Position numbers and translations under genes: made by a program
Shown here: positions 483-53,891 of the stretch, one piece after another
Position numbering within the stretch: the first letter of the stretch is position 1
How the letters are laid out: each line of letters begins with the position of its first letter
Notes under the pieces: generated by a model
The model's input: the letters and a program-made list of their open reading frames with translations, nothing else
Databases searched by the model: none
Told to the model about the DNA's origin: nothing
From: an uncultured Acidobacteriota bacterium
GTDB taxonomy: Bacteria; Acidobacteriota; Thermoanaerobaculia; Thermoanaerobaculales; Thermoanaerobaculaceae
Direction: 5' to 3'
DNA: 64,000 bases
NCBI GenBank assembly: GCA_963789745.1
Contig: CAWBLW010000010.1
Span: 69,984 to 133,983, forward strand

Positions 483-531
483 CGGATTCCCCCCTTCCGA
501 CACCACACGCTGGAGAACATCGGCGGTGTCG

Positions 532-3320: not shown

Positions 3321-3332
<12 letters not shown>
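2673..3332 (+). CDS. DUF2064-type glycosyltransferase ('rSAM/selenodomain-associated transferase 1' / arsenosugar-biosynthesis type)
   Basis: GTG at 2673 overlaps the preceding TGA (GTGA). The product begins VRTDVVVFGRAPEAGRVKTRLAAALGDAAAAEAYRAVLEHTL and contains VLVGSDIPRLD and GPAVDGGYVLV, a CofC/MobA-like nucleotidyltransferase fold typical of DUF2064. The upstream part of ORF 2034..3332 is GC artefact. Confidence 0.75.
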
Positions 3333-8805: not shown

Positions 8806-8836
8806 GCGCGCGCCCCGCGCCGCGCCGGGGAGAACG

Positions 8837-9451
8837 ATGACCGACGACCGCCTGCAGCGCCAGCTACGCTTCATCATGGAGATCGACAAGCTCAAAGGCG
8901 TGCTGCGCCGCTCGTACCTCGTGGGGGCCGACCGGCGCGAGAACTCCGCCGAGCACTCCTGGCACGTGGCGGTGATGGCGGTGGTGCTGGCGGAGCACGC
9001 CGGCGCTCCGGTGAACGTGGGGCGGGTCGTCACGATGCTCCTGGTGCACGACATCGTCGAGGTGGACGCGGGCGACACCTACGTGTACGACCCGGCGGGC
9101 GGGGCCGACAAGGCCGAGCGCGAACGGCTCGCCGCAGACCGCCTCTTCGGGCTCCTGCCGCCCGACCAGGGGGCCGAGCTGCGGGAGCTGTGGGAGGAGT
9201 TCGAGGCAGCGACCACCGCCGACGCGCGCTTCGCCGCCGCCCTCGACCGGTTGATGCCCGTGCTGCACAACGTCCACACCGGCGGGCGGTCGTGGCGCGA
9301 GCACGGCATCACCGCGGACCAGGTGATCGCCCGCAACAGCCGCATGGCCGAGGGCTCGGAGGAACTCTGGCGCCACGCCCGCGCGTTGATCGAGGCGGCG
9401 GTGGCGGAGGGGAGCCTGGCGACGCCGGCGGAGGCGAACCCCGCGACGTGA
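8837..9451 (+). CDS. HD-domain phosphohydrolase (YfbR-like 5'-deoxynucleotidase family)
   Basis: ATG at 8837 gives MTDDRLQRQLRFIMEIDKLKGVLRRSY...ENSAEHSWHVAVMAVVL...LVHDIVEVDAGD (H...HD...D metal ligands). Confidence 0.8.
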   Translation: MTDDRLQRQLRFIMEIDKLKGVLRRSYLVGADRRENSAEHSWHVAVMAVVLAEHAGAPVNVGRVVTMLLVHDIVEVDAGDTYVYDPAGGADKAERERLAADRLFGLLPPDQGAELRELWEEFEAATTADARFAAALDRLMPVLHNVHTGGRSWREHGITADQVIARNSRMAEGSEELWRHARALIEAAVAEGSLATPAEANPAT

Positions 9452-9519
9452 TTCGCGGCGGTCGCGGCGGCATTGACAGGCCCCCCGCCGCCGTGCTCGC
9501 ATGCCGCAGGGGACGCCAC

Positions 9520-12500: not shown

Positions 12501-12843
12501 CGATCCCGAGGTTGCGGCGGCGGTCGTGAGAGCGGACGACGGCGAGGTCGCGGCGGCGTTCGCGGCGGCGGCCGGAGCGGTGGCGAGCGCGTGGGAGCGC
12601 GGCGCGTTCTTCCCCCGTCTCGAGGAGCCGAACGGGGGCGACGAGCCGCGACGCTGCGCGAGTTGCGAGGTGCGCGACGCGTGCCTGCGGGGCGACAGCG
12701 GGTCCCGTCGGCGCCTGGCGTCGTGGGCGGCCGCGAACGCCGACGCGGACGGCCTCTCCGACACCGAGGCGGCGCTGCTCGCGGTCTGGCGCCTGCACGA
12801 GAAGGCGGCCGGCCAAGCGGCCTCCGCGGACGGCGGACGGTGA
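9520..12843 (+). CDS. addB: AddB-type helicase-nuclease subunit B (PD-(D/E)XK nuclease with iron-sulfur staple)
   Basis: GTG at 9520 is preceded by AGGGGA; GTG at 9493 is an alternative. The C-terminal RecB-like nuclease carries VLTDFKTG and the C-x2-C-x5-C cluster CASCEVRDAC, plus an upstream Cys (AACPWQAF). That arrangement matches AddB Fe-S nuclease domains. Confidence 0.75.
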   Translation: MNEESRARSGGRIKVARGARAVETLVLADIEALLAEAEADPRLLARPVVVVVPSRSLRLHLAAAVVAARGRSAAGVEILTLHGLAADVAARCGERRRPGRLLFGVLAGRFARREPALAPLASGFEDGELSVVATVRDLLDAGFAPEGAEALGDVLAGHADSDERTRAAALVRIAAGVALALDAGGFDLPGDLLRRAALLIAEEPTRALPARAVLVHGFADATGVATDLVQALVRHCGADVYLDEPPDPAEPSRPDPGVAFGRRLAERLEGAAPVERDEVVPAPPRLDLFAAPGGEAEVREVARRVRALLDAGVAPERIGVVARELAPYARPVHRHFGRLGVPFAMLDGPGSADAGARRARALAELLRRQAAASAESWLAAAGEDGEYDLRLALHACGAARVRDVAALDAAAVLDERDGLPLPARTGLATRAADADAAVEDEGTDRPDDDGGEVDEIAVAPRRRLRGVRLRRAVARAAALAARFDEWPQEATLAAHVRRLRRMLADDLALRDKTPEAAAVTGVVAEVAGELPDGFRLARDEFLLLLRRALAAVGGAPLGGPGAGVQVLSVTAARARTFAHLFVVGLNRDAFPRQVREDPLLPDRVRQPLAALLPDIPIKRGGLDEERFLFAELISAAAEVTLSWQACDDDGRARPASPLVERLRLGAGLGEPRVAPPAIAVEPGGDLRPAHEHAVLAGVHAPRAAFAEAFALACGEAGDETLSAGRLAVLDELDPERGTAAGRARARELGPYFGFVGPALAAADPRRRGLAVTTAEQAAACPWQAFLRRLLHLEPSPDALAAPPGVEGAVVGTAVHRVLEGIVRAAIPAAPETLAEALAAPGAAVAWPDDGALQALVGEVCARLARESGLALPGLDRVLARQAAPLLESARRLAWPEAGPASVAGAEVSGALAFEGPEGERSLAFRVDRVDVADGRAVLTDFKTGAPIAEGKQEATRRRHLLQAVRRGSALQVAAYALAGGGGAEGRYLFLRPQLDPEVAAAVVRADDGEVAAAFAAAAGAVASAWERGAFFPRLEEPNGGDEPRRCASCEVRDACLRGDSGSRRRLASWAAANADADGLSDTEAALLAVWRLHEKAAGQAASADGGR

Positions 12844-15800
12844 GCGCCGGGCCGATGCTCGACGCGGTGCGCGCCGCCGACGCCGCGGCGAGGCTTCGGG
12901 CGCAGACGTCGTTCGCAGGCGCGCTCGTGATCGAGGCCGGCGCCGGTACCGGGAAGACCGCAACGCTGGTGGCGCGGATCGTGGCGTGGTGCCTCGGGCC
13001 GGGCTGGCGGCGCGCGGCGGCCGAGTTGGCGGCGCAGCCGGCGCGCCCGCACCGCGCCGAGGCGCCGGCCGCCGAGAGGATCGCGGGGCGGGTGCTCGAC
13101 GCCGTGGTCGCGATCACCTTCACGGAGGCGGCGGCCGCCGAGATGGCGAGCCGGGTGGCGCAGGCGCTCGCCGAGGTCAGTGCCGGCAGGCTCCCGACCG
13201 GGCTGCTCCCCGAGGCGCTCGTCGTGGCGGACGGCGAGAGCGGGCCGCGGGCCGCGGCGCTGCTCGTCGCGCTCGACCACCTCGTGGTCGCCACGATCCA
13301 CGCCTTCTGTCGCCGCCTCCTGGCAGACGCCCCGCTCGAAGCCGGGCTGCACCCCGCGTTCACCGTGGACGCCGAGGGGCGGGTGGTGGACGAGGTCGCG
13401 AGGGAGACCGTCGAGTCGGCGTTCCGCGCGGCGCTGGCGAGCTCCGGAGATGAGCCGCTCGTGGCCCTGGCGGTGCGCGGCTTCGGCCCGGCCGAGGTCG
13501 CGGACGCGCTCGCCGAACTGGCGGCGGCCGGCGTCCCGCCGTCCGCGCTCGCCGAGGACCCGCTCGCGCCCGCCGCGGTGGCGGCGCTCGTCGGCCAGGT
13601 GCGCGGCGCCGCTGCGGAGGTGGACGCGCTCGTCGGGCGGCGAGTCGGGGGGCTGGGAAAGACCGCCAAGGCGATCAAGATCGCGAACGGGTGCGAGGCG
13701 CTCGGGGCGGCGGCCCTCGGGACGCTCGCGGAGTTGGCTGCGGCGGTGGCCGGCGCGCTGCCTGACAGCCTCGTCGAGCGCCTGGAGGAGTGGGGCCGGG
13801 GCAAGTCCACCGGGCGCGAGGCGGACGCGCTGGCGGACGTGGCGGCCGACCTGCGCGCGCCGGCCGGGCGCCTTGCCGTGCTCGCCGCACACGTCGCCCG
13901 CCTCGACCCCGAGCTGCTGGCGACCGCGTGGCGGGCGATCGGCCCCCTGTACGTCCAGCTCGACCGCACGATGCGTGCGCGCGGTGCGGAGACGTTCGCG
14001 GCGCTGTTGCGCGACGCGCGCAACCTGCTCGCGGACCGGCCCGCCGTTCGCGCCGCGGTGCGGGCGGGGATGACGCAGCTGCTCGTGGACGAGTTCCAGG
14101 ACACCGACCGGCTGCAGTGCGAGATCGTGCGCCTGCTCGCCCTCGACGGCCCGCCCGGCGAGCGCCCCGGCCTCTTCCTGATCGGGGACCCGAAGCAGTC
14201 GATCTACGGCTGGCGCAACGCCGACCTGGCGGCGTACGACGCCTTCCTCGACCTGGTGTGCGACGGCGGCGGCGAGGCGATGGGCCTCTCGGTCAACTTC
14301 CGGTCGCTGCCTCAGGTCCTCGACGAGGTGCGGCGGGTGGTGGAGCCGGCGATGGTGAGGCAGGCGGGCGTGCAGCCGGCGTTCCAGCCGCTCCTCCCGA
14401 GCGCGGCGCGTGCCGCGGCGCGGCCCGCCCCCGGCGGCCGCCGGGCGGCGGTCGAGCACTGGGTGTCGTGGGAGCGCGCCGAAGGTTCGGACGCGCTCGC
14501 GCCGGCGCGCGCCCGCGCGGCGGCGGAGATCGAAGCGCGCGCCCTGGCGGCGGACATCCGCGAGCTGCACGGCGATGGCGTCGCGTGGCGGGAGATCGGC
14601 GTCCTGCTGCGCACCACCGGCTCTCTCGACGTCGTCGTCGGCGCGTTGCGCGACGCGGGCGTGCCGCACGCCGTCGAGCGCGACCGCTCCTACTACCGTC
14701 GCCGCGAGGTCATCGAGGCGGCGGCGCTCGTGCGCACCGTCCTCGACCCCGGCGACCACCTCGCGCTGGTGACGGTGCTGCGCTCGGGCCTGGTCGGCGT
14801 GCCCGACGCCGCGCTCGTGCCGCTGTGGGCGCGCGGGCTGCCCGATCACGCCGGCGCGCTTCCAGCGCCGGACGAGGCGCGGCTCGGCCGCCTCGCGGCG
14901 CTCGTGGAGGAGGCCGCCGGCGCGCTTCCCGCGGGGATCCCCGGCCTCGCGCGCGTGACGGGGTGGGAGCGCAACCTGACGGCGTTCCTGGCGCGGCTGG
15001 CGGAGCTGCGCCGCTCGTTCGCGACCGAGCCCGCGGCCGTTTTCGTCGAACGCCTGCGCACCGCGACGCTGTTCGAGGCGAGCGAGGCGGCGCGCGCCCT
15101 GGGCGCGTACCGGACCGCCAACCTCGACCGCTTCTTCCGCACCCTGCTGGAGGGGATCGAGAGCGGGGGCGAGCCGCAGGCGATCGTGCGCGGCCTGCGG
15201 TCGAGCGTCGCCGAGGCGCGGGAGGCGCTCGAGGGGCGCCCCCTCGCGGCGGCCGAGGACGCGGTGCGGGTGATGACGATCCACAAGGCGAAGGGGTTGG
15301 ACTTCGCCCACGTCTACCTGCTGCAGGCGCACGGGCGGCCGCGCGGCGGCAGCAGGCTCGGCACCGGCGCCGAGGAGATCGGCGGCCGCTTCGAGTACGC
15401 CTTGCTCGGCGCCTGCACCCCCGGCTGGCACGAGGTGGAGGCGCGGCGGCGGCGGGTCGAGGAGGCGGAGCTGGTGCGGACGCTGTACGTCGCGATGACC
15501 CGCGCCAAGGACCGGCTGGTGGTGGCGGGGAGCTGGCCGGCCGCGCCGGCGGTTCATGTCCGACCGCGCTCGCACATGGACGTGCTGGCGCGCCGGGCGC
15601 CGGCGGAGGGGCTGGCTGCGGTCGCAGCGCGGGCGCGCGCCGCCGGCGGCCGCGACGCCGACGGCGACGGGGCGCGCTGGGTGTTCCCGGCGCTCGGCGG
15701 GTTGGAGGCCGGCCCGGCCGCGCCGGCGACGCCGGCGCCGGCACTGGCCACCCCGGAGCGTGTCGCGCGCGACGCCGAGCGACTGGCCACACTGCGGACC

Positions 15801-16469
15801 GAGGCCGCGGCCCACATGGCGACGGCGTTCTCCGCGCCGGCCTCGGAGGAGGCGCACCGGCGGCTGCTGGACGCGACCGCGACGGATCCGGACGGGGAGA
15901 GCGGCGGCGCCGCGTCGGCGCGCGCCCGCGAAAGCAGCGCGTCGCCCGCGGCGGCGGCCGGAGCGGCGGTCCACCGTGTCCTCGAGACGATCGACCTCGA
16001 GGCCGAGATCGGCGGCCAGCTCGCCGCCGCCCGGGGATTGCTCACCGCCCTGGTGGAAGGGTTGATCGGAGCCGACGGGCGGCGCGAGGCCGAGCGCCGG
16101 GCCGCGGAGGTCCTCACTTGCCTCGCCGCCGGTCCGCTGCTCGACCGCCTGCGCATGGTCGCGCCGCACGTGGTCGCGCGCGAGCTCGCGGTCCTGCTCC
16201 CGCCCGACGGGGGCCCGGCTGCGCCGGTCGGCTTCGTCTCCGGGGCGATCGACCTCCTCTACCGCGACCCCGAAACCGGCGACCTCGTCGTCGCCGACTA
16301 CAAGACCGACGACGTGACGGGCGCGGCCGAGCTCGCCGCCAGGGCCGCCACATACGCGCCGCAGGGTGCGGTCTACCGGCGTGCCCTCGAGGAGGCGCTG
16401 CGCCTGCCGCGTCGGCCGCGCTTCGAGCTGTGGTTCCTCCAGGCCGGCGCGATCGTCCGTATCCCGTGA
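12840..16469 (+). CDS. addA: AddA-type UvrD/Rep-family helicase-nuclease subunit A
   Basis: GTG at 12840 overlaps the addB stop (GTGA); ATG at 12855 is an alternative. It has Walker A (EAGAGTGKTATLV), helicase motifs (LLVDEFQDTD, GDPKQSIYGWRNAD, VMTIHKAKGLDF, YVAMTRAKDRL) and a C-terminal nuclease (IDLLYRDPETGDLVVADYKTD). Confidence 0.85.
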   Translation: MSAGPMLDAVRAADAAARLRAQTSFAGALVIEAGAGTGKTATLVARIVAWCLGPGWRRAAAELAAQPARPHRAEAPAAERIAGRVLDAVVAITFTEAAAAEMASRVAQALAEVSAGRLPTGLLPEALVVADGESGPRAAALLVALDHLVVATIHAFCRRLLADAPLEAGLHPAFTVDAEGRVVDEVARETVESAFRAALASSGDEPLVALAVRGFGPAEVADALAELAAAGVPPSALAEDPLAPAAVAALVGQVRGAAAEVDALVGRRVGGLGKTAKAIKIANGCEALGAAALGTLAELAAAVAGALPDSLVERLEEWGRGKSTGREADALADVAADLRAPAGRLAVLAAHVARLDPELLATAWRAIGPLYVQLDRTMRARGAETFAALLRDARNLLADRPAVRAAVRAGMTQLLVDEFQDTDRLQCEIVRLLALDGPPGERPGLFLIGDPKQSIYGWRNADLAAYDAFLDLVCDGGGEAMGLSVNFRSLPQVLDEVRRVVEPAMVRQAGVQPAFQPLLPSAARAAARPAPGGRRAAVEHWVSWERAEGSDALAPARARAAAEIEARALAADIRELHGDGVAWREIGVLLRTTGSLDVVVGALRDAGVPHAVERDRSYYRRREVIEAAALVRTVLDPGDHLALVTVLRSGLVGVPDAALVPLWARGLPDHAGALPAPDEARLGRLAALVEEAAGALPAGIPGLARVTGWERNLTAFLARLAELRRSFATEPAAVFVERLRTATLFEASEAARALGAYRTANLDRFFRTLLEGIESGGEPQAIVRGLRSSVAEAREALEGRPLAAAEDAVRVMTIHKAKGLDFAHVYLLQAHGRPRGGSRLGTGAEEIGGRFEYALLGACTPGWHEVEARRRRVEEAELVRTLYVAMTRAKDRLVVAGSWPAAPAVHVRPRSHMDVLARRAPAEGLAAVAARARAAGGRDADGDGARWVFPALGGLEAGPAAPATPAPALATPERVARDAERLATLRTEAAAHMATAFSAPASEEAHRRLLDATATDPDGESGGAASARARESSASPAAAAGAAVHRVLETIDLEAEIGGQLAAARGLLTALVEGLIGADGRREAERRAAEVLTCLAAGPLLDRLRMVAPHVVARELAVLLPPDGGPAAPVGFVSGAIDLLYRDPETGDLVVADYKTDDVTGAAELAARAATYAPQGAVYRRALEEALRLPRRPRFELWFLQAGAIVRIP

Positions 16470-24094: not shown

Positions 24095-24997
24095 ATGAGT
24101 CAGAATACGTCGCGCATTTTTCGGCCGGTGCCGGTCGTCGGGCCGGCGCGTATCTGGTTTGCGGCGCTGTCGGCCGCGGTCGCCGTGGCTGTCGTCGGGT
24201 TGCTCTTCTCGTTGTTGCGCACCCCGACAATCCGCTACGAGATCGACAGCCGGGCACTGACGATCACCAGCGTGCTGGGGTCAGAGCACCAGCAAAAGAC
24301 GATCGATCTCGCGCGCATCGCCGAGGCAAAGATCGAGTGGTTGCACGACGGCGCGCTGCGTTTCGGGACCGAGAAGCCCGGCTACTGCGTCGGCTTCTTC
24401 GCCTATCCGCGGCTCGGCGAGGTATGGCAGATCACCGACTGCTCCCAGCACGGCGTCGTGGTGACCTCGAGCGCCGAGGCCACGCCCGTCGCGGTGACGC
24501 CGTCGGACCCGGACGCCTTCTTGAAGGCGTTGCGAGAGGGCCGGCGAGCGGTGTTTACGCCCCCCGGGCGCCGGGGCGCGGCGTGGTGGGTCAACCTGTT
24601 CGTCGTGGCGGGCGTCGGCGCCCTCGCGATCGCCGCGCTCGCGGTCGTCCTCTTCGTCGCCCCGGCGCGCCTGCGCTATACCGTGGCCGGCGGCGCGCTC
24701 GAGGTGCGCATGCTGCTGCGGCGTCGGGTCGTGCCGCTCGCCGGCGTGCGGGCGCGGGCGCACCGGCCGCTGGCCGGCCACCGCCTGGCAGGACTTCCGC
24801 TGCCTGGTTACCGGGTCGGCTCGTGGGTGCTCGACACCATGGCCACGTCGGTGCTCGCCTCCGCGGCCGACGAAGGCGTGATGATCGAGGGCGACGGGCG
24901 GTTGTTCGTGAACCCGCAGGACCGGGAGGGGTTCCTGGCGGCGCTGGCAGCCGAGGGCGCCACGGTCATCACCGACACCACGTTGCACCGCCGCTAG
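24095..24997 (+). CDS. membrane protein with duplicated bacterial PH-like (bPH/YdbT-like) modules, function unknown
   Basis: ATG at 24095 is preceded by GGGAG. There are two TM segments (IWFAALSAAVAVAVVGLLF; WWVNLFVVAGVGALAIAALAVVLFV), each followed by a roughly 100-aa soluble module. Confidence 0.55.
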   Translation: MSQNTSRIFRPVPVVGPARIWFAALSAAVAVAVVGLLFSLLRTPTIRYEIDSRALTITSVLGSEHQQKTIDLARIAEAKIEWLHDGALRFGTEKPGYCVGFFAYPRLGEVWQITDCSQHGVVVTSSAEATPVAVTPSDPDAFLKALREGRRAVFTPPGRRGAAWWVNLFVVAGVGALAIAALAVVLFVAPARLRYTVAGGALEVRMLLRRRVVPLAGVRARAHRPLAGHRLAGLPLPGYRVGSWVLDTMATSVLASAADEGVMIEGDGRLFVNPQDREGFLAALAAEGATVITDTTLHRR

Positions 24998-25252
24998 GGG
25001 CGCCGCCGGCGTCGGACCTCTCGCTGCGTTGCGCCGCGCCGGTTCGCATCCTCACATAGCCTACGGCTATGCTCCGGTGCGACCGGCTTGCGCGCCTTGC
25101 GATAGGCCCAACGGCGGCGGCGCGGCTACACGCCGCAAGTGGCGAGGCCCTGCCTTTGGGGGAACGTGCGTCTTCGAGGTTGGCGCTCGGGGCTGCGCGG
25201 CCTGCGGCCGGCGCAGCCGGCTCGGACCACGGACCACGGACCACAGACCACG
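24998..25252. repeat. composite structured intergenic repeat, copy 1 (long hairpin module, second hairpin, GGACCAC heptamer array)
   Basis: It starts directly after the TAG at 24995-24997. Its ends are near-identical to the copies at 50230 and 54513 (GGCGCCGCCGGCGTCGGACCTCT ... ATAGGCCCAACGGCGGCGGCGCGGCTACACGCC). The apical hairpin is CATAGCC-tac-GGCTATG (25055-25071). The heptamer array lies at 25224-25252. Confidence 0.85.
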
Positions 25253-25383
25253 CATCTTCCGTACCCGGGCCAGCCTCGCGTCGGGGGGGCCGGCCTGACG
25301 GCGACCCGGAGGCCGAACTGTGGCACACTCGGGCGTGAGCGCCGTCGGTCGCGGGAGTGCGGATCTCGGATGGAGGTGAGGCC

Positions 25384-25962
25384 ATGCAGCGGCTGTTCTT
25401 GAGGACGGTTTTGGCGTTCGGGTCGTTGGTGGTGACGTCTGCGGCTTGGAGCCCGGCATCGGCGCAGGGCCCCACGGATCGCGCTGCGGAAGCCGGAGTC
25501 GTCAAGGTCGGCGAGCGGGCCCCCGACTTCTCGCTTCCTGCGGCGGACGGAAAGACCTATCGTCTCGCCGACCTGCGAGGCGGCAAACGTCTCGTGCTCG
25601 TGATCTTCCGCGGGGTGTGGTGAGTCTACTGCCGAATGCAGCTCGGCGAGCTGCAAGAGCACCTGTCGGAGTTCCGCGGCCTCGGTGCCGAGGTGTGGGC
25701 GATCAGCTCGACCGACCCCGTGGACAAGTTGACCACCTACGCGCAGGTCCGGGGTATCAAGTTCCCCTTGCTCGCGGACTCCGGCCTCGCGGTCACGAAG
25801 AGATACGGCGTACTCAACGAGGCGCGTCGCAACATGGCGTACCCGGCGACGCTGGTGATCGATCGCAAAGGAGTCGTCCGCTACGTCCGAATCGACGTCG
25901 ACTTCACGAAGCGGCCGCCTGTGACCGACCTGCTCGCATTTCTGAAGAAACTGGCGAAGTGA
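25384..25962 (+). CDS. secreted AhpC/TSA-family redoxin (peroxiredoxin/thiol-disulfide oxidoreductase-like), probable selenoprotein with UGA-encoded Sec at 25621-25623
   Basis: RBS GGAGGTGAG precedes ATG at 25384, and a signal peptide follows (MQRLFLRTVLAFGSLVVTSAAWSPASAQ). ORFs 25357..25623 and 25636..25962 share one frame. The TGA falls at the first Cys of the family's W-C-x-x-C motif: LVLVIFRGVW-[TGA]-VYCRMQLGELQ. A SECIS-like hairpin lies just downstream. Confidence 0.7.
25637..25655 (+). promoter_or_regulatory. candidate bacterial SECIS hairpin
   Basis: TGCAGCTC-GGC-GAGCTGCA is a perfect 8-bp stem with a G-rich apical loop. It starts 13 nt after the in-frame TGA, within the usual UGA-to-loop spacing for bacterial SECIS elements. 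Confidence 0.5.
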
Positions 25963-26024
25963 AGCGACCCGCAGCGGGGTCAGGCTCGCGTCGTCGGGTC
26001 TCTGCCCCTGCGCCTGTCTTCTTC

Positions 26025-26088
26025 GGACCGCGGACCATTGACCACTGACCACGTCGTTCCGGAGCCCGAACCCCGAGCCCCTGTTTCT
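26025..26088. repeat. heptamer-periodic array filling a convergent intergenic region
   Basis: Nine consecutive 7-nt units are in register: GGACCGC GGACCAT TGACCAC TGACCAC GTCGTTC CGGAGCC CGAACCC CGAGCCC CTGTTTC. The TAG stop of the minus-strand DUF4388 gene (26087-26089) lies in the conserved end of the element. Confidence 0.8.
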
Positions 26089-27247
26089 ATGTTCGCAGGC
26101 GCGGGGGGCCCTGGTGGCGGGTGATCTCCTGCGACTCGCGCAGCTGCACCACGCCGCGCTGGATCAGGTTGCGGATGATGAGCTGGTTGTGCAGCCTGAC
26201 GCCCGGAAGCACCGCGAGGATCTGGTTGGCGGTGTAGCGGCCGTTGATGCGTGAGAGGACGAAACCCTCCTCGGGGTCGCACTTGAGCTGGACGATGTCC
26301 CTGGGCGCCAGCGCCAGCTCGAGGATAGTGGAAGGGCCGATCGGGAGCCTTTCGACATCCTGGACGATTTCACGCTCGAGTTCATCGGCGGCCGCGAGCG
26401 CCTTCGGGATGCTCGGGTAGCGCTCGCGCACCTCGACCACCTTGCGGTAGGCCTCGAGAGCGTCGCCCAGGGCGAGGCTGCTCTCGGCCTCCTGGATGCG
26501 ATCGCGCCACGTCGAGCGCAGGAACCCAGGAATCCGCTTCGGCGGCAGCACTGGCGGCAGGAGCTCGAAAACGCCGTTGGTGACGCCCTGGAAAATGAAG
26601 CTGAGCACCGGGAACTCGGGCATCCGGCAGGCGAGGGCGATCTCCTCGATGCTCCTGGCGCCGTCGATTTCGCCCAGGACGGCGGTGCCCGCCGGGGTCA
26701 GGCGGCTCTCGTCGATCGCCTTGACCGCCCGGGGGATGGCGCCGGAGTCGGTAATGACCGCCGCGATGCGGCGGCGCTCGTCCACCTGCCGGGCGCCTTC
26801 GAGGATGAAGTGGTCGACCGGGAGCTGGAGCTCCTTGAAGTCGCGGCGGGGCTTGACGTCGTCGAGGAAGAAGAACTCCCCCTCCTCCCAGAGCATCAGG
26901 TCGTAGACGGTCTCCTCGGTTTTGACCCGCACCAGGTGGTCGACCTGCTCGCGGCTGAGGCGGTCGCTCTGAACCAGGAGCTCGCCGAGCATGACGTTGA
27001 GCTCCTTCTGGCGGTCGAGAACGTGCTCGAGCTCGTCCTCGGTGAGGATGGTCCAGCCGACCAGGTAGTAGCCGAGGTGCTCGCGCGGGTTGTTGGATGT
27101 GACTGCGGACACGAGGCCGTTCTGGAACAGGATCTTCTTGGTGTAGCGCTGCCCCTTGATCACGAGGGTGCCGGTCTTCCGACTCGCGGAGATCCACTGC
27201 ATGAGGTCCGGGAACGGCATCGTGCGGAGGTTGCCGGTGACCGCCAT
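26087..27247 (-). CDS. DUF4388 (PatA-N-like) domain protein
   Basis: ATG at 27247 gives MAVTGNLRTMPFPDLMQWISASRKTGTLVIKGQRYTKKILFQNGLVSA, a typical DUF4388 start. A second similar module follows (LILEGARQVDE...). Confidence 0.75.
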   Translation of the reverse strand: MAVTGNLRTMPFPDLMQWISASRKTGTLVIKGQRYTKKILFQNGLVSAVTSNNPREHLGYYLVGWTILTEDELEHVLDRQKELNVMLGELLVQSDRLSREQVDHLVRVKTEETVYDLMLWEEGEFFFLDDVKPRRDFKELQLPVDHFILEGARQVDERRRIAAVITDSGAIPRAVKAIDESRLTPAGTAVLGEIDGARSIEEIALACRMPEFPVLSFIFQGVTNGVFELLPPVLPPKRIPGFLRSTWRDRIQEAESSLALGDALEAYRKVVEVRERYPSIPKALAAADELEREIVQDVERLPIGPSTILELALAPRDIVQLKCDPEEGFVLSRINGRYTANQILAVLPGVRLHNQLIIRNLIQRGVVQLRESQEITRHQGPPRLRT

Positions 27248-33505: not shown

Positions 33506-34753
33506 TCAACCCTCGTCGATCGCGAGAACGGCAGCGATCGCGTCGAGATCGGGCGGAACCGGATCGGGGATGCGGATCCGGCGCGAGGCGGCGGCGATGT
33601 CCTTGAGGCCGGTCCCGGTGAGGAGCAGCACCGCGCGATCGTCGCGCGCCACCAACCCCTCGTCGAGGGCGGCGAGCAAGCCGGCCAGCGCCGCGGCCGC
33701 GGCCGGCTCGCAGAAGACGCCCGTGGTGCCGGCGAGCAACGGGATCGCGTCGAGGATCGCTGAGTCGCTCACGATCACCCCGGAGCCGCCGGAGGCGCGT
33801 ACCGCCGCGAGCGCCATGACCGCGTTGCGCGGCGCGCCGACCACGAGCGAATCGGCGACGCTGGCGGCGTCCGGCACCGGCGTGATCTCGGTCGCGCCGG
33901 CGCGCAGCGCCCGTGCGAGCGCGGCGGAGCCCTCCGGCTGGACGACGAGCAAGCGCGGCGCGCGCCGCAGCAGTCGGCACCGCACGAGGTCGGCGAAACC
34001 CTTTGCGACGCCCGCCACGATGACGCCGTCCCCGGCCGGGACGATCACGACGTCGGGCCACTCCGGTGCGAGGTCGGCCGCGACCTCGATCGCCGCGGTC
34101 TTCTTCCCCTCGATCGTGAACGGGTTGAACGCGGTGTTGCGGTTGTACCAGCCGAAGCGCTCGCAGGCGGCGAGCGAAAGCTCGAACGCGTCGTCGTAAC
34201 TCCCGGCCACCGGCACGACGCGCGCCCCGTAACTCGCCATCTGCACGAGCTTGGCGGGCGGGGCCGCGGCCGGCACGAAGACGACGGCGCGCACGCCCGC
34301 GGCTGCAGCGACCGCGGCGAGCGCCGAGGCGGCGTTGCCGGTCGAGGCGGTGGCGATGGTGCCGTACCCGTACTCGACGGCCTTGGCGACGACCAGGAGC
34401 GAGGCGCGGTCCTTGGTGGAGCCGGAGGGGTTGCGGGTGTCGTCCTTGGCCCACAGCCGCGGCATCCCGAGCCGGCGCCGCAGCTGCGGCACCGGGAGCA
34501 GCGGCGTGCCGCCGACCCTGAGCGCGGGTAGAGAGACCGGCGACGCGATCGGCAGGAACGCCGTCAGCGCGCCGGGGTCGTTGACGCGGGCCTCCGGCCA
34601 GCGCGCCGGCAGCTCGTCGATCTCGACCCGGAGCACGCCGCGCGTCACGCCGCCGGGACGCTGCTGCCGGGTGCAGACGGGACAGACGTAGCGCACCTCG
34701 CCCTCGGGGTAGCGCGCCCCGCACTCGCCGCAGACGAAGGTGAAGGTCGCCAT
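33506..34753 (-). CDS. threonine-synthase-like fold-type-II PLP enzyme with N-terminal zinc ribbon
   Basis: ATG at 34753 gives MATFTFVCGECGARYPEGEVRYVCPVC (a Cys4 ribbon), then the PLP-lysine region NPSGSTKDRAS and a glycine-rich loop (VPAGDGVIVAG). Confidence 0.75.
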   Translation of the reverse strand: MATFTFVCGECGARYPEGEVRYVCPVCTRQQRPGGVTRGVLRVEIDELPARWPEARVNDPGALTAFLPIASPVSLPALRVGGTPLLPVPQLRRRLGMPRLWAKDDTRNPSGSTKDRASLLVVAKAVEYGYGTIATASTGNAASALAAVAAAAGVRAVVFVPAAAPPAKLVQMASYGARVVPVAGSYDDAFELSLAACERFGWYNRNTAFNPFTIEGKKTAAIEVAADLAPEWPDVVIVPAGDGVIVAGVAKGFADLVRCRLLRRAPRLLVVQPEGSAALARALRAGATEITPVPDAASVADSLVVGAPRNAVMALAAVRASGGSGVIVSDSAILDAIPLLAGTTGVFCEPAAAAALAGLLAALDEGLVARDDRAVLLLTGTGLKDIAAASRRIRIPDPVPPDLDAIAAVLAIDEG

Positions 34754-34861
34754 CGGGTTCCCGTGGGGCGGGCGCCCTCGCCGACCCCGCTTCTGTGGGG
34801 CGGGCGCCCTCGCCCGCCCACCTCTATTCTCTCCGCGCGGCCGGGGGCGGCCGCGCCACAC

Positions 34862-35839
34862 TCACATGGTCAGCGCCATCAGCGCCTTCTGCACGTGCAG
34901 CCGGTTCTCCGCCTCATCGTAGACCACCGACTGCGGCCCGTCGATCACCTCGTCGGTGACCTCGCGGCCGCGGTCGGCCGGGAGCGGGTGCATGTAGATC
35001 ATGCGCTTCTTGCCGAGGGCCATGTGCGCAGCGTCGCAGCGCCACGCGGGGTACTTCTCGATCAGCCCCAACCCCTCCTTCTTGTCGGTGGTGTGCATGA
35101 GCGGGCCCCACGACTTCGGGATCACGATGTCGGCGTCGGCAAACGCCGCCTCGAAGTCGTCCACGATCTCGAACTTGGCTCCCGCCGCGGCGGCGTTGGC
35201 CCGTGCCTGGTCCTCGATCTCGGGCATGAGCCTGAACTCGGGGGGGCAGGCGAACGTGACGTCGAGGCCGAAGCGCGGCATCATCAGGATGAGGCTCTGC
35301 GGCACGGAGATCGGGCGGATGTAGTTGGGCGCCGAGGTCCACGCCACGCCGATCTTGAGGCCGCGGGTATTGGCCCCGAACTTCTCCCGGATGGTCATGT
35401 AGTCGGCCATGATCTGGCACGGGTGGTAGACGTCGCACTGCATGTTGAGGACCGGGACCGTGGACCAGCGCGCGACCTCGCGCAGGTACGGGTTCCCCTC
35501 GCGGAACGCGCAGTGGCGGATCGCGATCCCATCGCCGTAGCGCGACAGCACCGAGGCGGTGTCCTTCGCGTTCTCCCCGTGCGAGATCTGCATCTTGTCG
35601 GGGGAGAGGAAGATCCCGTGGCCGCCGAGCTGCGTGATCCCGGTCTCGAACGAGTTGCGCGTCCGCGTCGAGGAGTCGAAGAAGATCATGTAGAGCGTCT
35701 TGTCCTCGAGCAACCGCATCCTCTTGCCGGCGGCCTTGGCGACCTTGAGGTCGCGAGCCAGCTCGAGCACGGTCTCGAGCTCGTCGGTGGTCCAATCCTG
35801 CGTGGTGATGAAGTGTTTGCCCCTGAGTTTGGTCTGCAT
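34862..35839 (-). CDS. ygeW: YgeW-like (knotted) carbamoyltransferase
   Basis: ATG at 35839. Motifs are FDSSTRTRNSFE, QISHGENAKDTA, NMQCDVYHPCQIMADY, IGVAWTSAPNYIRPISVPQSLILMMPRFGLDVTF, DADIVIPKSWGP and YMHPLPADRG. These align block for block with E. coli YgeW as I remember it. Confidence 0.75.
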   Translation of the reverse strand: MQTKLRGKHFITTQDWTTDELETVLELARDLKVAKAAGKRMRLLEDKTLYMIFFDSSTRTRNSFETGITQLGGHGIFLSPDKMQISHGENAKDTASVLSRYGDGIAIRHCAFREGNPYLREVARWSTVPVLNMQCDVYHPCQIMADYMTIREKFGANTRGLKIGVAWTSAPNYIRPISVPQSLILMMPRFGLDVTFACPPEFRLMPEIEDQARANAAAAGAKFEIVDDFEAAFADADIVIPKSWGPLMHTTDKKEGLGLIEKYPAWRCDAAHMALGKKRMIYMHPLPADRGREVTDEVIDGPQSVVYDEAENRLHVQKALMALTM

Positions 35840-35926
35840 GTGCGCTCCCGAAGAGTCAAAAGTCAAAAAGCCGAAGGTCGAGACTGTCAATCGACAGCGT
35901 GCGGCTGACAGCCACGAGACGAAAAG

Positions 35927-37150
35927 CTACGAGCCGAGGGGCGGCGTCTTCAGGCGCTGCGCCAGCTCCTCGGGGATGAGCGAGTACACCGCTGTGGCCG
36001 TGACCAGGTCCGCGACCTCGACCCACTCGTCGGTGGTGTGGGCGAGCTCCTCACGGCCCGGCGCGAAACCAACCGTCGGAATCCCGAGCCGCCCCATCGT
36101 CGCCACGCCGTTGGTGGAAAATACCCAGCGCGAGATCCCCGGCGCGCGCCCGAGCACGGCCCGCGCGGAGGCCGCCACCCCCTGCACGAGCGGGTGCGCC
36201 TCGGGGACGACCCAGGTGGGGAAGATCTGCTCCTGGCGGGCGGGCTCGCCGGTCCACGCCTGGCCCTCCCAGGAGAGGACGCGCACCTCGGCGTCGCCGA
36301 GGTGCGGCAGCGCGCGGATCTCCTCCAGCGCGCTCTCGGGCGACTCGCCGGCGGTGAGGCGGCGGTCGAGCACGATCCGCGCTTCGTCCGGCACAGCGTT
36401 GAGCGACGCGGTCTTGCAGTCGATGAACGACACAGTGACGGTGCCCTTGCCGAGGAAGTCGTCGGCACGCAGCGTCGCGTTGAGCGCCTCGATGTCGGCG
36501 ACGATCGGCGCCATCTTGTACACCGCGTTGACCCCGCGCTCGCAGTGGGCGCCGTGGGCGGAGACCCCCTTGGTCACGACCTCGACCGACATCCGCCCGC
36601 GGTGGCCGCGGTAGACGTCGAGGTTGGTGGGCTCGCCGAGGATGACGGCGTCCGGCCGTACGCCCTCCGCCTCGATGAGGTGCATAAGGGGATAACCGTC
36701 ACACGACTCCTCCATGACCGACGCCACGAGGACGAGCTGCACGCCGGGGGGCAGGCCGCGCTCCAGCATCAGCTTGGCGCCGTACGCCATGCACGCGACC
36801 GCGGGAAGCTCGTCCACCGCGCCGCGCCCGTGCACCTTGCCGCCCTCGAGCTTCCCGGCAAACGGGTCGTACCGCCACGCCTGCGGGTCGCCGATGCCGA
36901 CGCAGTCGATGTGGCCGTCCATCATGATCACGAGCGGCCCGTCGCCGACGCGGGCGACGACGCTGCCGATGCGGTCGAAGTGGACGTCGGCGAACCCCAA
37001 CGCCTCGTACTCGGCCTTGACGCGCTCGCAGCGCTCGCGCTCGCGGCCGCTCTCTGCCGGGATCGCGATCATCTCGCGCAGGAAGCGCACGATCTGGGTC
37101 TCGTACCGTTTCGCCGCCGCCAACGCTTCTGCACCCCGTAGCGTCGTCAT
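35927..37150 (-). CDS. ygeY: YgeY-family M20 metallohydrolase ('selenium metabolism-linked' hydrolase)
   Basis: 407 aa: IVRFLREMIAIPAESGRE..., MMDGHIDCVG, GRGAVDE, VMEESCDG, GEPTNL...GHRG. This is the M20/ArgE/DapE fold in the YgeY pattern. Its ATG overlaps the upstream gene's stop (ATGA). Confidence 0.8.
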   Translation of the reverse strand: MTTLRGAEALAAAKRYETQIVRFLREMIAIPAESGRERERCERVKAEYEALGFADVHFDRIGSVVARVGDGPLVIMMDGHIDCVGIGDPQAWRYDPFAGKLEGGKVHGRGAVDELPAVACMAYGAKLMLERGLPPGVQLVLVASVMEESCDGYPLMHLIEAEGVRPDAVILGEPTNLDVYRGHRGRMSVEVVTKGVSAHGAHCERGVNAVYKMAPIVADIEALNATLRADDFLGKGTVTVSFIDCKTASLNAVPDEARIVLDRRLTAGESPESALEEIRALPHLGDAEVRVLSWEGQAWTGEPARQEQIFPTWVVPEAHPLVQGVAASARAVLGRAPGISRWVFSTNGVATMGRLGIPTVGFAPGREELAHTTDEWVEVADLVTATAVYSLIPEELAQRLKTPPLGS

Positions 37151-38631
37151 GACCGTGCCTCTTCCCGGACCCCGAGCCCCGAGTCCCGAACCCCGGTGTC
37201 TCTATTGAACGCCTCGATCGCCTCGTCCCACGCCGGCAGCTCGGCCTGCAGGTCGGTCCAGAACGTCGGCGACCACAGCGCGTTGAGCTCCGACACGGTT
37301 TTGCCCTGCTGCTCGACCCAGGTGAAGTACTTGAGGTTGTGGATCGCCTTGCGGTCGGGGTAGGTGAGCTCCTTGACGTGGTCCGTGGTGGCGCCGAGCA
37401 GGTAGCGCTCGAAGTCGATCTCGGCCTGGCGCTCGGTGTACGTCCCCCGCTCGGCCGTCAGCTCGGCGAGACGCGTCTGGTACAGCGCCGCGGAGTCGGT
37501 GAAGCAGGTCACGAGCACGTCGTCGGCGTCCAGCTCGTAATGACGAGCGGTCTTGATCGCCGCCAGCAGGTTGCAGATCGAGGAGATGCCGAGCAGCGGC
37601 AGTTGGTTGACGAGGTCGTAGGCGACGCCGCGGCCGAGCAGCGCCTCTCGCCCCGCCGGCTCGTTGAACACCCGCAGCAGCCGCATCGTCGCCTCGTCGT
37701 CGATCGCCGCGACGAAGTCGGTCGTGCGGACGTTGTGGATCCACGGCACGTGCTTGTCGCCGATCCCCTCGATGCGGTGGCCGCCGAACCCGGACGCCAG
37801 CAGCGTCGGGCATTGCAGCGCCTCGGCCACCGTTGTCGTGCACCCCGGGAACGTGCGCTTGAGGAAGTCGCCGGCGCCCAGCGTGCCGGCGGAGCCGGAG
37901 GCGCCCACCCACGCGGCCAGCCGACCGCGCGGGCCGGCGACGGCGGCGAACGCCTCCTCGGCTGCGGGGCCGGTGACGCCGAAGTGCCAGAGGTAGTTGC
38001 CGAACTCGTCGAACTGGTTGAAGATCACCGCCTGCGGCTGGGTCTTCCGGATCTCCCAGCAGGCGTCGAAGATCTCCTTCACGTTGGACTCGCAACCCGG
38101 CGTCGCGATCACCTCGGCGCCGATCGAGGCGAGCCACTCGAAGCGCTCGCGGCTCATCTCCTCGGGGAGGATCGCCACCGCGTGGCAACCCAGGAGCGCC
38201 GAGTCGAACGCGCCGCCGCGGCAGTAGTTGCCGGTCGAGGGCCACACCGCCTTTTGCGTCACCGGGTCGAACCCTCCCGCGACCAGGCGGGGCACGAGGC
38301 ATCCGAACGCCGCGCCGACCTTGTGCGCGCCGGTCGGGAAGTGGCGCCCGACGAGGCCGACGATGCGGGCCGGCACCCCGGACAGTTCGGGGGGGATCAC
38401 GAGGGCGTTCACCGGGCCGAAGCCGCCGGTCGCCGGGTCGTTGTGCCACGTGATGCGGAAGAGGTTGAGGGGGTCAACGGCCTGCATGTCGATCCCCGGC
38501 AGCCGTTCGGCGATGGCGGCGTCGATCGTTTTCGGGTCGCGCTGCTGGGCGATGGTCGGGATCACGATGCCGCGCTCCCGGCAGCGCTCCACCGCGTGTG
38601 CGCGCGCGCGTCGTTTCGTTTCGTCGGTCAC
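37147..38631 (-). CDS. fold-type-II PLP-dependent enzyme (tryptophan-synthase-beta/cysteine-synthase superfamily)
   Basis: GTG at 38631. 494 aa. The PLP-lysine region is FPTGAHKVGAAFG and the glycine loop is GASGSAGTLG. The last ~17 aa (DTGVRDSGLGVREEARS) are encoded by a CTCGGGG-type heptamer array (37167-37201). Confidence 0.7.
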   Translation of the reverse strand: MTDETKRRARAHAVERCRERGIVIPTIAQQRDPKTIDAAIAERLPGIDMQAVDPLNLFRITWHNDPATGGFGPVNALVIPPELSGVPARIVGLVGRHFPTGAHKVGAAFGCLVPRLVAGGFDPVTQKAVWPSTGNYCRGGAFDSALLGCHAVAILPEEMSRERFEWLASIGAEVIATPGCESNVKEIFDACWEIRKTQPQAVIFNQFDEFGNYLWHFGVTGPAAEEAFAAVAGPRGRLAAWVGASGSAGTLGAGDFLKRTFPGCTTTVAEALQCPTLLASGFGGHRIEGIGDKHVPWIHNVRTTDFVAAIDDEATMRLLRVFNEPAGREALLGRGVAYDLVNQLPLLGISSICNLLAAIKTARHYELDADDVLVTCFTDSAALYQTRLAELTAERGTYTERQAEIDFERYLLGATTDHVKELTYPDRKAIHNLKYFTWVEQQGKTVSELNALWSPTFWTDLQAELPAWDEAIEAFNRDTGVRDSGLGVREEARS

Positions 38632-38724
38632 GTCTGTCGCTCCCGGAGCGCATTGTATCGGTTTTGCCGCGTTCGGGCACGACGAGTCTCAAACTAAACA
38701 CAGGCATTCCGGGACCGCTCCCGG

Positions 38725-41325: not shown

Positions 41326-41354
41326 CGGCCGGAATCCGGATCGGAGGAGGGGAC

Positions 41355-51048: not shown

Positions 51049-53778
<2,730 letters not shown>

Positions 53779-53891
53779 CGCGCCCGTCCCCCCGTTTGCA
53801 TACTACCCGCTCGGTCGCCGCTGAATTCCTCTGCCGCGCCGCGCCCGCACGCGTTCCGGAGCCTGCGGTGGCATGCTATCGTTTGACCACC

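Follow-up and report, generated by a model that had tools for sequence, protein, structure and literature searches.

Prx-like thiol:disulfide oxidoreductases are a selenoprotein family described by Kryukov & Gladyshev in 2004, listed with the PF00578 domain and a UxxC or UxxU motif and represented by WP_010940744.1 of Geobacter sulfurreducens (PMC13188914 Table 1). The members originally reported came mostly from Deltaproteobacteria and from marine metagenomes (PMC1794560, PMC1088965), and selenoproteins have already been recorded for Acidobacteria (PMC1794560, Table 2). The published model of the bacterial SECIS element (bSECIS) specifies a loop of 3-9 nt with G in the first two loop positions, a stem of 4-16 bp, a distance of 16-37 nt from the UGA and an MFE <= -7.5 kcal/mol (PMC13188914 Fig. 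2). Here we describe a locus at 25384-25962 of the window (the whole 64-kb stretch of DNA that was analysed) that is very probably a single selenoprotein gene, its product predicted to be exported to the periplasm, with UGA decoded as selenocysteine (Sec) via a bacterial SECIS; its internal UGA almost certainly encodes Sec.

Analysis of the reading frame revealed that, as the initial annotation had proposed, a single gene was split in two by the ORF track. The two ORFs (25357..25623 and 25636..25962) share one frame and are separated by TGA 25621-25623 followed by GTC TAC TGC CGA, and the region from ATG 25384 forms one 192-codon frame with this TGA as its sole interruption. Read-through yields 192 residues (...FRGVW-[TGA]-VYCRMQLGELQ...), which, with Cys placed at the TGA, match the Pfam AhpC-TSA profile over its full length (1-124/124, E=1.2e-33). 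The coordinates and sequences that the initial annotation gave for the redoxin locus all agreed with our reading, including the strong ribosome-binding site before the start codon (Table 1). A GGAGGT-type Shine-Dalgarno (SD) sequence precedes the start codon in 10 of the 12 orthologues examined, the other two matching at 5/6 positions, and the SD, a signal-like N-terminus and 78-80 codons ahead of the UGA are conserved among orthologues. Consensus scans of 24950-26150 for sigma-70 promoters and intrinsic terminators found nothing.

Table 1. Features of the proposed redoxin selenoprotein locus (window positions)
Feature	Position	Strand	Remarks
Shine-Dalgarno sequence GGAGGTGAG	25372..25380	+	read from sequence; ends 3 nt before start codon
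Complete selenoprotein CDS	25384..25962	+	192 codons including Sec80, plus own TGA stop 25960-25962
Predicted signal peptide, residues 1-27, MQRLFLRTVLAFGSLVVTSAAWSPASA / QGP	25384..25464	+	prediction from sequence features alone
In-frame UGA, codon 80, proposed selenocysteine codon	25621..25623	+	TGA column conserved in orthologues
U-V-Y-C redox motif (Sec80...Cys83)	25621..25632	+	Cys83 invariant
SECIS-type hairpin TGCAGCTC-GGC-GAGCTGCA	25637-25655	+	arms 25637-25644 and 25648-25655; loop GGC 25645-25647
Pro154 codon, motif A-Y-P-A-T	25843..25845	+	aligns with AhpE Arg116, the Prx catalytic Arg

Recoding of the internal UGA appears to be local, since TGA serves as the stop of 25 of the 30 Pfam-supported genes in the window, the redoxin gene included. 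This use of TGA also ruled out a genome-wide reassignment of UGA (code 4 or 25). When the window was screened for further in-frame TGAs with coding-like sequence on both sides, one emerged, at 3323 on the minus strand, which looks like an ordinary gene end; the filter was so strict that it missed even the redoxin TGA, and the screen is thus no dependable negative.

In all of the Sec-type loci retrieved, gene callers had divided the gene, giving products of 79 aa and 108 aa, or slightly different fragment lengths in a few divergent loci. The corresponding view, that the gene is truly split and yields two polypeptides, a secreted one of 79 residues from the N-terminal part and one of 108 residues with its own start from the C-terminal part, agrees with the two genes called in public annotations and with the presence in every sequence of a possible start after the TGA (mostly ATG at +5 codons, and ATG or GTG at +1 in three loci, L036-L038), but we consider it very unlikely. 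The restart position is not conserved, ATG 25636 being replaced by ACG or GCG in the same three loci, and the conserved strong SD is that of the upstream start, with no comparable GGAGG-type SD between the TGA and ATG 25636. The predicted signal peptide is found on the N-terminal fragment only, so that the two halves would reach different compartments. A true split would also fall inside the CxxC motif, with loss of the nucleophile, and would leave the conservation of the hairpin described below unexplained.

Comparison with homologues supported the proposal of the initial annotation that the UGA stands for the first Cys of a W-C-x-x-C motif: in the alignments the UGA and the redox Cys share a column. 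The homologue search returned 28 clusters of 107-114 aa that cover no more of the query than its C-terminal 55-58%, the pattern left by a conserved in-frame stop, as well as two full-length 192-aa relatives of Cys type (P0001 and P0002), with WCIYC and WCIFC at the UGA site; Cys occupies the UGA column in the closest full-length relatives. TGA was found in one column in 13 distinct orthologous sequences (56-100% identity), which represent at least five gene neighbourhoods and independent ENA, JGI, NCBI and Logan assemblies, and TGC was found in this column in the Cys-type relatives L030-L032. Selenoproteins are defined by just this signature, a UGA at a redox-active column that interchanges with Cys during evolution. 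Two of these Cys-type relatives, L030 and L031, are nested within the Sec clade (199/200 bootstraps), and the Cys forms are derived, not ancestral.

These comparisons also bear on whether the stop is a recent nonsense mutation in a pseudogene or a miscalled TGC or TGT. TGA and TGC are one base apart and Cys-type relatives exist, as either event would require, yet the TGA is present in 13 distinct sequences from independent assemblies that have diverged to 56% identity, both halves of the gene are under purifying selection, and the Cys forms are the derived ones. Values of dN/dS were 0.08-0.48 on either side of the UGA, in comparisons that reached saturation of dS and showed no indels, and the half downstream of the UGA is without frameshifts or further stops. 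The initial annotation had noted that relatives with the same stop and no conserved hairpin would mark a pseudogene, and that the codon might be an assembly error; the orthologues carry the stop together with a conserved hairpin, and the TGA recurs in 13 independent assemblies. A pseudogene or a sequencing or assembly error is thus effectively refuted.

The perfect 8-bp hairpin that starts 13 nt after the TGA, which the initial annotation had considered well placed for a SECIS element, lies within the published bSECIS limits (PMC13188914) on all four counts: a loop of GGC (or C-GGC-G), a stem of 7-8 bp, a UGA-to-loop distance of 21 nt and an MFE of -11.7 kcal/mol when folded alone. It was seen in MFE and centroid folds alike. 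The gene's own TGA stop at 25960 is followed by no such hairpin. A 66-nt segment was no more stable than its shuffles (z=-0.30), indicating that stability alone is no evidence in DNA of 72% GC, and synonymous-site conservation was used instead. A perfect hairpin of SECIS-compatible geometry follows 0.9% (8 bp) or 2.8% (7 bp) of all window positions. No SECIS or other family was matched in Rfam, either across the whole window at the gathering threshold or in 25560-25720 at E<=10, a negative that carries no information, bacterial SECIS elements being both short and heterogeneous.

The decisive evidence that the hairpin is not a chance structure is comparative. Its 18-nt core, CAG CTC GGC GAG CTG CAA, is invariant in the 13 Sec-type sequences, synonymous sites included. 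Among 51 degenerate codons whose amino acid is invariant, only 16 are invariant as codons, and 8 of these 16 occupy codon positions +2, +3 and +6 to +11 counted from the UGA (p=2e-5 for this set and p=2e-4 for the hairpin codons alone, by Fisher's test). L030 and L031, both of Cys type, have changed exactly the frozen codons, with a GAG>GAC change that leaves a C.C mismatch in the stem and a folding energy of -5.0 kcal/mol. The same QLGEL peptide is encoded in a distant Cys-type outgroup (P0031) by CAA CTC GGT GAG CTT, which forms no hairpin (-0.2 kcal/mol); P0031 served as the codon control, none of the distant metagenome and genome loci L008-L029 having a WCxxC...QLGEL form. The stem is invariant across the Sec-type sequences, with no compensatory base changes, and selection on the hairpin at the RNA level is indicated by the missing synonymous variation only. 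The SECIS of Escherichia coli fdhF has a bulged U; the hairpin described here is without one of that type.

Of the genes that would be expected to act on this element, no selA, selB, selD or tRNA-Sec was found in the window or in 22 related loci. Pfam searches of about 40 candidate window frames gave no SelA, SelB or SelD, and ARAGORN returned no tRNA of any kind from the window and the 22 loci, and so says nothing on tRNA-Sec. The selenium-linked context that the initial annotation saw in two other gene sets of the window proved weaker than claimed. NCBIfam names the 1939-3332 pair arsenosugar glycosyltransferases, and YgeY and SsnA are part of the SelD-dependent Se-cofactor and purine pathway, which is distinct from the Sec-decoding trait (PMC2276186; bioRxiv 10.1101/2025.04.24.650524).

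With no Sec machinery found in these loci, it could be argued that the UGA is read through without such machinery, the hairpin being a stimulator only, to give a full-length, selenium-free product. Such read-through might be due to an opal suppressor of the acidobacterial allo-tRNA type, to a tRNA(Cys) resembling SelC* that is delivered by SelB, or to near-cognate insertion of Trp or Cys; allo-tRNAs of Acidobacteria may act as nonsense suppressors, and the SelC* tRNA(Cys) of other phyla may be opal suppressors (PMC5389517). We regard read-through of this kind as unlikely, given that the UGA falls exactly at the redox-active Cys column, where it interchanges with Cys, and that the SelB-type bSECIS model accommodates both the geometry of the hairpin and its G-G loop. 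With a general suppressor, the TGA stops of 25 of the 30 window genes would be read through too, and SelC* tRNAs are described from Firmicutes, Thermodesulfobacteria, Nitrospirae and Proteobacteria, not Acidobacteria (PMC5389517). Hairpin-dependent recoding of UGA in this acidobacterial clade by a non-canonical tRNA of the kinds reported from Acidobacteria and other soil bacteria (an opal-suppressing allo-tRNA, or a tRNA-Cys like SelC*), in place of the canonical SelA/SelB/tRNA-Sec system, is quite unlikely; if true, UGA would be recoded in an exported redox enzyme in a site-specific and structure-guided way, without selenium.

We propose instead that translation starts at ATG 25384 and that Sec is inserted at UGA 25621-25623, with no termination, because the mRNA hairpin (7-8 bp stem, apical GGC loop) would act as a bacterial SECIS. 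This element would recruit the Sec-specific elongation factor SelB with Sec-tRNA(Sec), and the ribosome would run on to the gene's own stop. Cleavage of the predicted signal peptide would then yield an exported protein. The N-terminus has a basic n-region, a hydrophobic core whose mean Kyte-Doolittle value over 12 residues is 2.0-2.6, and an end of the A-x-A type, heuristic features that are conserved in orthologues, and residues 1-40 are low-confidence and unstructured in the AlphaFold model of a Cys orthologue.

The protein has a peroxiredoxin fold with a thioredoxin-type active site. In the model of the Cys orthologue the domain has a pLDDT >95, and its top Foldseek matches are Bcp4 and AhpE (TM(target) 0.90, rmsd 1.5-1.8 A); AhpE is also the best PDB sequence match (E about 1e-16). 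In this model helix 81-92 has residue 80 as its N-terminal cap, and Pro154 lies just ahead of strand 155-159. In sequence alignments U80 falls on the Thr of the TxxC motif of Prx and Cys83 on the peroxidatic Cys of these enzymes, AhpE among them, so that in place of the canonical P-x-x-x-T-x-x-C(U) the protein reads R-G-V-W-U-V-Y-C, with Arg for Pro and Sec for Thr. The canonical catalytic Arg is absent, Pro154 standing in its place; the Pro154 column of alignment A1 holds Pro in all CxxC-type rows and Arg in TxxC-type rows, and among the AhpE structures PDB 4xih was identified as the R116A mutant. The assignment by the initial annotation to an AhpC/TSA redoxin with a U-x-x-C centre stands, with the amendment that the active site is thioredoxin-like and not peroxidatic, the UGA corresponding to the Prx Thr and the catalytic Arg to Pro.

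On this AhpE/BCP-like Prx scaffold, with an active site converted to the thioredoxin type and Sec80-x-x-Cys83 at the N-terminus of helix alpha-1, the mature protein would most likely function in selenol/thiol-disulfide oxidoreduction. The reaction would begin with attack by Sec80 on a disulfide of the substrate or on an oxidised Cys/Met-type target, and Cys83 would resolve the intermediate to give a selenenylsulfide, which a DsbD/CcdA-type membrane electron shuttle may re-reduce. The Cys-type outgroup gene has DsbD as its divergent neighbour, and no Sec-type gene lies beside DsbD.

The redoxin gene leaves the current understanding of Sec decoding unchanged. It does provide sequence-level evidence that a peat/palsa lineage of Acidobacteriota decodes Sec and puts selenium in a redox enzyme predicted to be exported, which bears on the use of selenium in soil. 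Essentially all public annotations of the clade carry the protein split into 79-aa and 108-aa products, entries that a dedicated model would repair. The clade also offers a natural experiment, in which secondary conversion of Sec to Cys was followed by decay of exactly those codons that form the SECIS; it shows the constraint that a SECIS places on coding sequence and could calibrate SECIS predictors.

Comparison with described proteins suggested both how far the gene is familiar and where it departs. Mycobacterium tuberculosis AhpE (Rv2238c; a 1-Cys Prx; PDB 1xvw, 4x1u) shares the fold (TM 0.90, rmsd 1.6 A, for the Cys-orthologue model), but has P-x-x-x-T-x-x-C and Arg116, without Sec or a signal peptide, whereas the window protein has R-G-V-W-U-V-Y-C and Pro154. 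PrxU (NF040737, TxxU) is likewise a bacterial selenoprotein of the same Pfam family and fold. In PrxU, however, Sec replaces the peroxidatic Cys, whereas in the window protein Sec replaces Thr, the peroxidatic-equivalent position stays Cys, and the Prx Pro and Arg are missing; membership was rejected at 45.3 bits against a cutoff of 270. SelL-type UxxU proteins, including the SelL-related family (NF040769), share a Prx-like thioredoxin fold with Sec in a CxxC-equivalent motif, but have two Sec where the window protein has one, and the NF040769 score was 41.3 bits against a cutoff of 120. The WAxxUGC NCBIfam model scored far below its cutoff, and none of the NCBIfam selenoprotein models reached its own.

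ResA, the best NCBIfam match, belongs with TlpA and CcmG to proteins that resemble the modelled window protein in having W-C-x-x-C at a helix N-terminus and a conserved Pro before the next beta-strand; a putative export signal and an expected dependence on DsbD/CcdA would be further likenesses. The scaffold of the window protein is nearer to Prx than to TlpA, and the scores (NF002854, 63.3 bits against 170; NF047696, 33.3 against 230) excluded ResA/TlpA membership; no cytochrome-maturation or copper-chaperone genes were found in the gene context.

The known family that the protein matches, to judge by its PF00578 domain (E=1.2e-33) and UxxC motif, is that of the Prx-like thiol:disulfide oxidoreductase selenoproteins. 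The likeness extends to the AhpC/TSA domain, a distant homology to Prx, the thioredoxin-like UxxC that replaces the TxxC/TxxU of Prx, and a probable SECIS directly downstream inside the coding region, and it is well supported that the gene is an ordinary addition to a family known since 2004. The chances are about even that it also represents a previously uncatalogued acidobacterial subfamily of UxxC Prx-like selenoproteins that bear a signal peptide and have no curated model, a reading much more likely than recoding by a non-canonical tRNA. Compared by description with the Prx-like family, the window gene differs in being of an acidobacterial, 72% GC subfamily with a predicted signal peptide.

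Public annotations cut the redoxin gene at 25384-25962 in two, but it is a genuine and conserved selenoprotein gene. ORFs 25357..25623 and 25636..25962 lie in a single frame, with only a TGA (25621-25623) and four sense codons between them, as the initial annotation had stated. Readthrough from the ATG, which does follow a strong ribosome binding site, gives the claimed product of 192 residues, containing ...FRGVW-[TGA]-VYCRMQLGELQ.... With Cys placed at the TGA, the joined protein matched the entire Pfam AhpC-TSA profile (1-124/124, E=1.2e-33) and also the Redoxin profile, as expected from the domain first assigned to it. Among 30 genes of the window with Pfam support, 25 end in TGA, including the redoxin gene itself (25960-25962), indicating that UGA is not reassigned genome-wide and that recoding is local.

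Features of the window with position, strand and basis
Feature	Position	Strand	Basis or remark
Glycosyltransferase-2 and DUF2064 pair	1939-2676 and about 2680-3332	+	TIGR04283/TIGR04282
Region of very high first-codon-position GC, where very long ORFs overlap on the two strands	8806-16469	+	
Tandem heptamer arrays GGACCAC / CGGACCA, 3-4 copies	25223-25252, 26025-26052, 54777-54804	+	
Shine-Dalgarno-type GGAGGTGAG	5' of ATG 25384	+	read from sequence
Hairpin TGCAGCTC-GGC-GAGCTGCA	25637-25655	+	13 nt after TGA; in MFE and centroid folds
Purine / uric-acid catabolism-type cluster	33509-44059	both	Pfam/NCBIfam
P-type heavy-metal ATPase, N-terminal two YHS and HMBD domains	51052-53802	-	Pfam

Searching for homologues of the joined protein yielded 28 clusters of 107-114 aa, confined to its C-terminal 55-58%, and two full-length 192-aa relatives, whose WCIYC and WCIFC place Cys in the UGA column and confirm that the UGA occupies the first Cys position of the CxxC. 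In the DNA compared, comprising the loci of the truncated proteins together with genome and metagenome loci, every fetched locus carried TGA in the identical column. The 13 distinct TGA-bearing sequences (56-100% protein identity) came from ENA, JGI, NCBI and Logan assemblies and represented at least five different gene neighbourhoods. Pairwise comparison of orthologues with the window gave dN/dS values of 0.08-0.48 on either side of the UGA (38 codons before it, 108 after it), with dS up to saturation and zero indels, thus ruling out a pseudogene as well as an assembly error.

Close orthologues, from Acidobacteriota MAGs of peat and palsa, retain the synteny of the window, with bPH_5 upstream and PatA_N/DUF4388, YajQ and RNase E/G downstream. 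The neighbourhood of three other loci (L033-L035), which represent one Sec-type lineage, is unlike that of the window, with an IS110-family transposase immediately upstream of the Sec-type (TGA-bearing) gene and a Macro-domain gene downstream, indicating that the gene moved or its flanks were rearranged. No conserved operon partner of the redoxin family was found across the loci compared.

Folding recovered the 8-bp hairpin first noticed downstream of the TGA, and its geometry (loop GGC or C-GGC-G, stem 7-8 bp, 21 nt spacing, MFE -11.7 kcal/mol) lies within the bSECIS limits of PMC13188914 on all four counts (loop of 3-9 nt with G in its first two positions, stem of 4-16 bp, 16-37 nt from the UGA, MFE <= -7.5 kcal/mol). 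The 66-nt segment showed no excess stability over shuffles (z=-0.30), so that in 72% GC DNA stability alone is no evidence. Of all window positions, 0.9% are followed by a perfect 8-bp hairpin of SECIS-compatible geometry and 2.8% by a 7-bp one, so that what is seen in this one sequence suggests a SECIS element but does not settle the matter. Across the 13 Sec-type sequences, an 18-nt core, CAG CTC GGC GAG CTG CAA, was identical in every one while the surrounding codons drift. Because the QLGELQ peptide is itself conserved, synonymous sites were tested. Codon-invariant columns made up 16 of the 51 amino-acid-invariant degenerate columns, and half of them (8/16) lay at +2, +3 and +6 to +11 after the UGA, with no invariant Leu or Gly codon column outside this block (Fisher's exact p=2e-5 for the block, 2e-4 when restricted to the six hairpin codons, both ignoring phylogenetic non-independence). 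No Rfam SECIS family matched the window element, and the stem, being invariant across Sec-type sequences, offered zero compensatory changes to score. A stop retained in relatives without a conserved hairpin had been taken in advance as the mark of a pseudogene; the orthologues keep the TGA together with the hairpin core.

Cys-type genes, with Cys in the UGA column, provided natural controls. Two of them, L030 and L031, are nested inside the Sec clade (NJ, 199/200 bootstraps), indicating that Sec and the hairpin are ancestral and Cys a secondary conversion. In both, the codons changed are exactly the frozen ones (TAC>TTC, TGC>TGT, GGC>GGT and GAG>GAC), the last producing a C.C stem mismatch and a hairpin of -5.0 kcal/mol, short of the bSECIS threshold. 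The distant Cys-type P0031 encodes Q-L-G-E-L as CAA CTC GGT GAG CTT, and its equivalent segment is unfolded (-0.2 kcal/mol), demonstrating that the hairpin codons are not dictated by the peptide.

The conserved TGA, purifying selection and frozen SECIS-type hairpin thus uphold the original reading of a mis-split selenoprotein gene, and Sec decoding at UGA 25621-25623 is highly probable. The main surviving alternative, that the UGA is suppressed without Sec machinery, draws on allo-tRNAs reported in Acidobacteria (PMC5389517) but is at odds with Sec/Cys interchange at the redox Cys, with a hairpin geometry of the SelB type and with the many genes that use TGA as their ordinary stop, and we consider it quite improbable. 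Neither selA, selB, selD nor tRNA-Sec was found within the 64-kb window or 22 related loci.

The nearest solved structure by sequence is the 1-Cys peroxiredoxin AhpE of M. tuberculosis (E about 1e-16). Alignment sets F-R-G-V-W-U-V-Y-C opposite F-P-L-A-F-T-G-I-C of AhpE, so that the UGA column corresponds to Thr of the Prx P-x-x-x-T-x-x-C motif, Cys83 to the peroxidatic Cys, and an Arg to the motif Pro. Pro154 (A-Y-P-A-T) lies opposite AhpE Arg116, a residue identity confirmed by PDB 4xih, the R116A mutant. In an alignment of 31 sequences, this column holds Arg in TxxC-type relatives and Pro in CxxC-type rows (the Sec/Cys clade of the window, P0031-33 and TlpA-like sequences). The AlphaFold model of P0001, a Cys-type orthologue of the same length (70% identical; mean pLDDT 87, domain >95), has residue 80 capping the N-terminus of helix 81-92, Pro154 immediately ahead of strand 155-159, and Bcp4 and AhpE as best structural matches (TM 0.90, rmsd 1.5-1.8 A). 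Alignment and model together indicate a predicted peroxiredoxin scaffold whose U-x-x-C active site is of the thioredoxin type, and argue that the protein is no canonical peroxidase. A strong SD is conserved in all orthologues, as is the distance of 78-80 codons from the start to the UGA, and their N-termini share a basic n-region, followed by a hydrophobic core and an A-x-A-type end, from which we infer export by the Sec pathway.

Building on established bacterial Sec decoding and thioredoxin-fold chemistry, we propose that SelB with Sec-tRNA(Sec) would bind the hairpin when the ribosome meets UGA80, leading to Sec insertion. In the exported enzyme, Sec80 would be the nucleophile and Cys83 the resolving residue of a cycle via a selenenylsulfide, with re-reduction by a DsbD/CcdA-type shuttle. 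As it lacks the Prx Thr and Arg, the enzyme would more probably repair disulfides or oxidised proteins of the cell envelope than reduce peroxide. In locus L044, the P0031 redoxin gene (1501-2121) has as divergent neighbour a full DsbD (DsbD_N, DsbD_TM, Thioredoxin_7; 1-1285, minus strand) and, on its other flank, an HD-domain protein fused to thioredoxin domains, which suggests a periplasmic reductive module in the lineage of P0031. DsbD beside this Cys-type outgroup gene would fit a reductive pathway in the periplasm; none of the Sec-type loci compared has DsbD as a neighbour.

Two other gene sets had been called selenium-linked, a view that held only in part. The glycosyltransferase pair scored 180.6 bits with TIGR04283 (cutoff 182, just under) and 164.5 with TIGR04282 (cutoff 134), both now named 'arsenosugar biosynthesis glycosyltransferase' in NCBIfam; the older label 'selenodomain-associated' is historical. 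No radical-SAM ArsS-like partner adjoins the pair in the window. YgeY (TIGR03526, 432.8 vs cutoff 321.5) and SsnA (TIGR03314, 487.8 vs 455.5) were confirmed. These are uric-acid / 2,8-dioxopurine pathway enzymes whose selenium link, through SelD-dependent molybdenum hydroxylases, is a Se-cofactor trait separate from Sec decoding (PMC2276186; bioRxiv 10.1101/2025.04.24.650524), and they are at most a hint of selD in the genome. Their cluster also includes ThrC-like and CysK-like PLP enzymes, an OTCase-like carbamoyltransferase (under the YgeW cutoff), a GltD/PreA-like Fe-S flavoprotein fusion whose YgfK-like region scored only 123 bits vs 835, and a dihydropyrimidinase-like amidohydrolase. Neither xdh nor yqeB nor yqeC was seen in the window. 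The cluster is similar, but not identical, to that of the 2,8-dioxopurine pathway (bioRxiv 10.1101/2025.04.24.650524).

Some YHS-domain proteins and E1-E2 ATPases count as selenoprotein families (PMC13188914 Table 1); in the heavy-metal ATPase gene, elsewhere in the window, no in-frame TGA stood out. The GC-rich region encodes, by Pfam, an AddB-like PD-(D/E)XK nuclease (about 11.8-12.7 kb) followed by an AddA-like UvrD-type helicase (from about 12.9 kb); its 2322-aa giant ORF was rejected as a gene, being an artefact of stop-poor GC-rich sequence. The selenoprotein gene has a heptamer array in each of its intergenic flanks, about 130 nt before the ATG and about 63 nt past the stop, both in one orientation; a third array is found at 54.8 kb. 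In the close orthologous loci L001-L003, L006 and L017, comparable arrays stand at the corresponding places on either side of the gene, whereas L004, L005, L007 and L018 show weaker matches on one side. The window-wide 14-mer count was not above shuffles, and the three arrays are the sole near-perfect ones; they may serve as binding sites of a regulator or represent a REP-like element.

No NCBIfam model reached its curated cutoff on the redoxin, including ResA (63 bits vs 170), PrxU (45 vs 270), SelL-related (41 vs 120) and WAxxUGC (34 vs 300). The clade is thus captured by no curated selenoprotein model, which explains its systematic mis-annotation. The 2006 bacterial census listed three families and four selenoproteins for Acidobacteria (PMC1794560, Table 2). 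By family description, the protein agrees with the 'Prx-like thiol:disulfide oxidoreductase' selenoproteins (PF00578; UxxC/UxxU), graded as predicted with high confidence (PMC13188914 Table 1), and the gene appears to be a fresh member of this known family, which numbered eight selenoprotein genes in the census (PMC1794560, Table 1) and is listed there for Geobacter, Syntrophus and Desulfotalea and, as a distant form, for Syntrophomonas (PMC1794560, Table 3).
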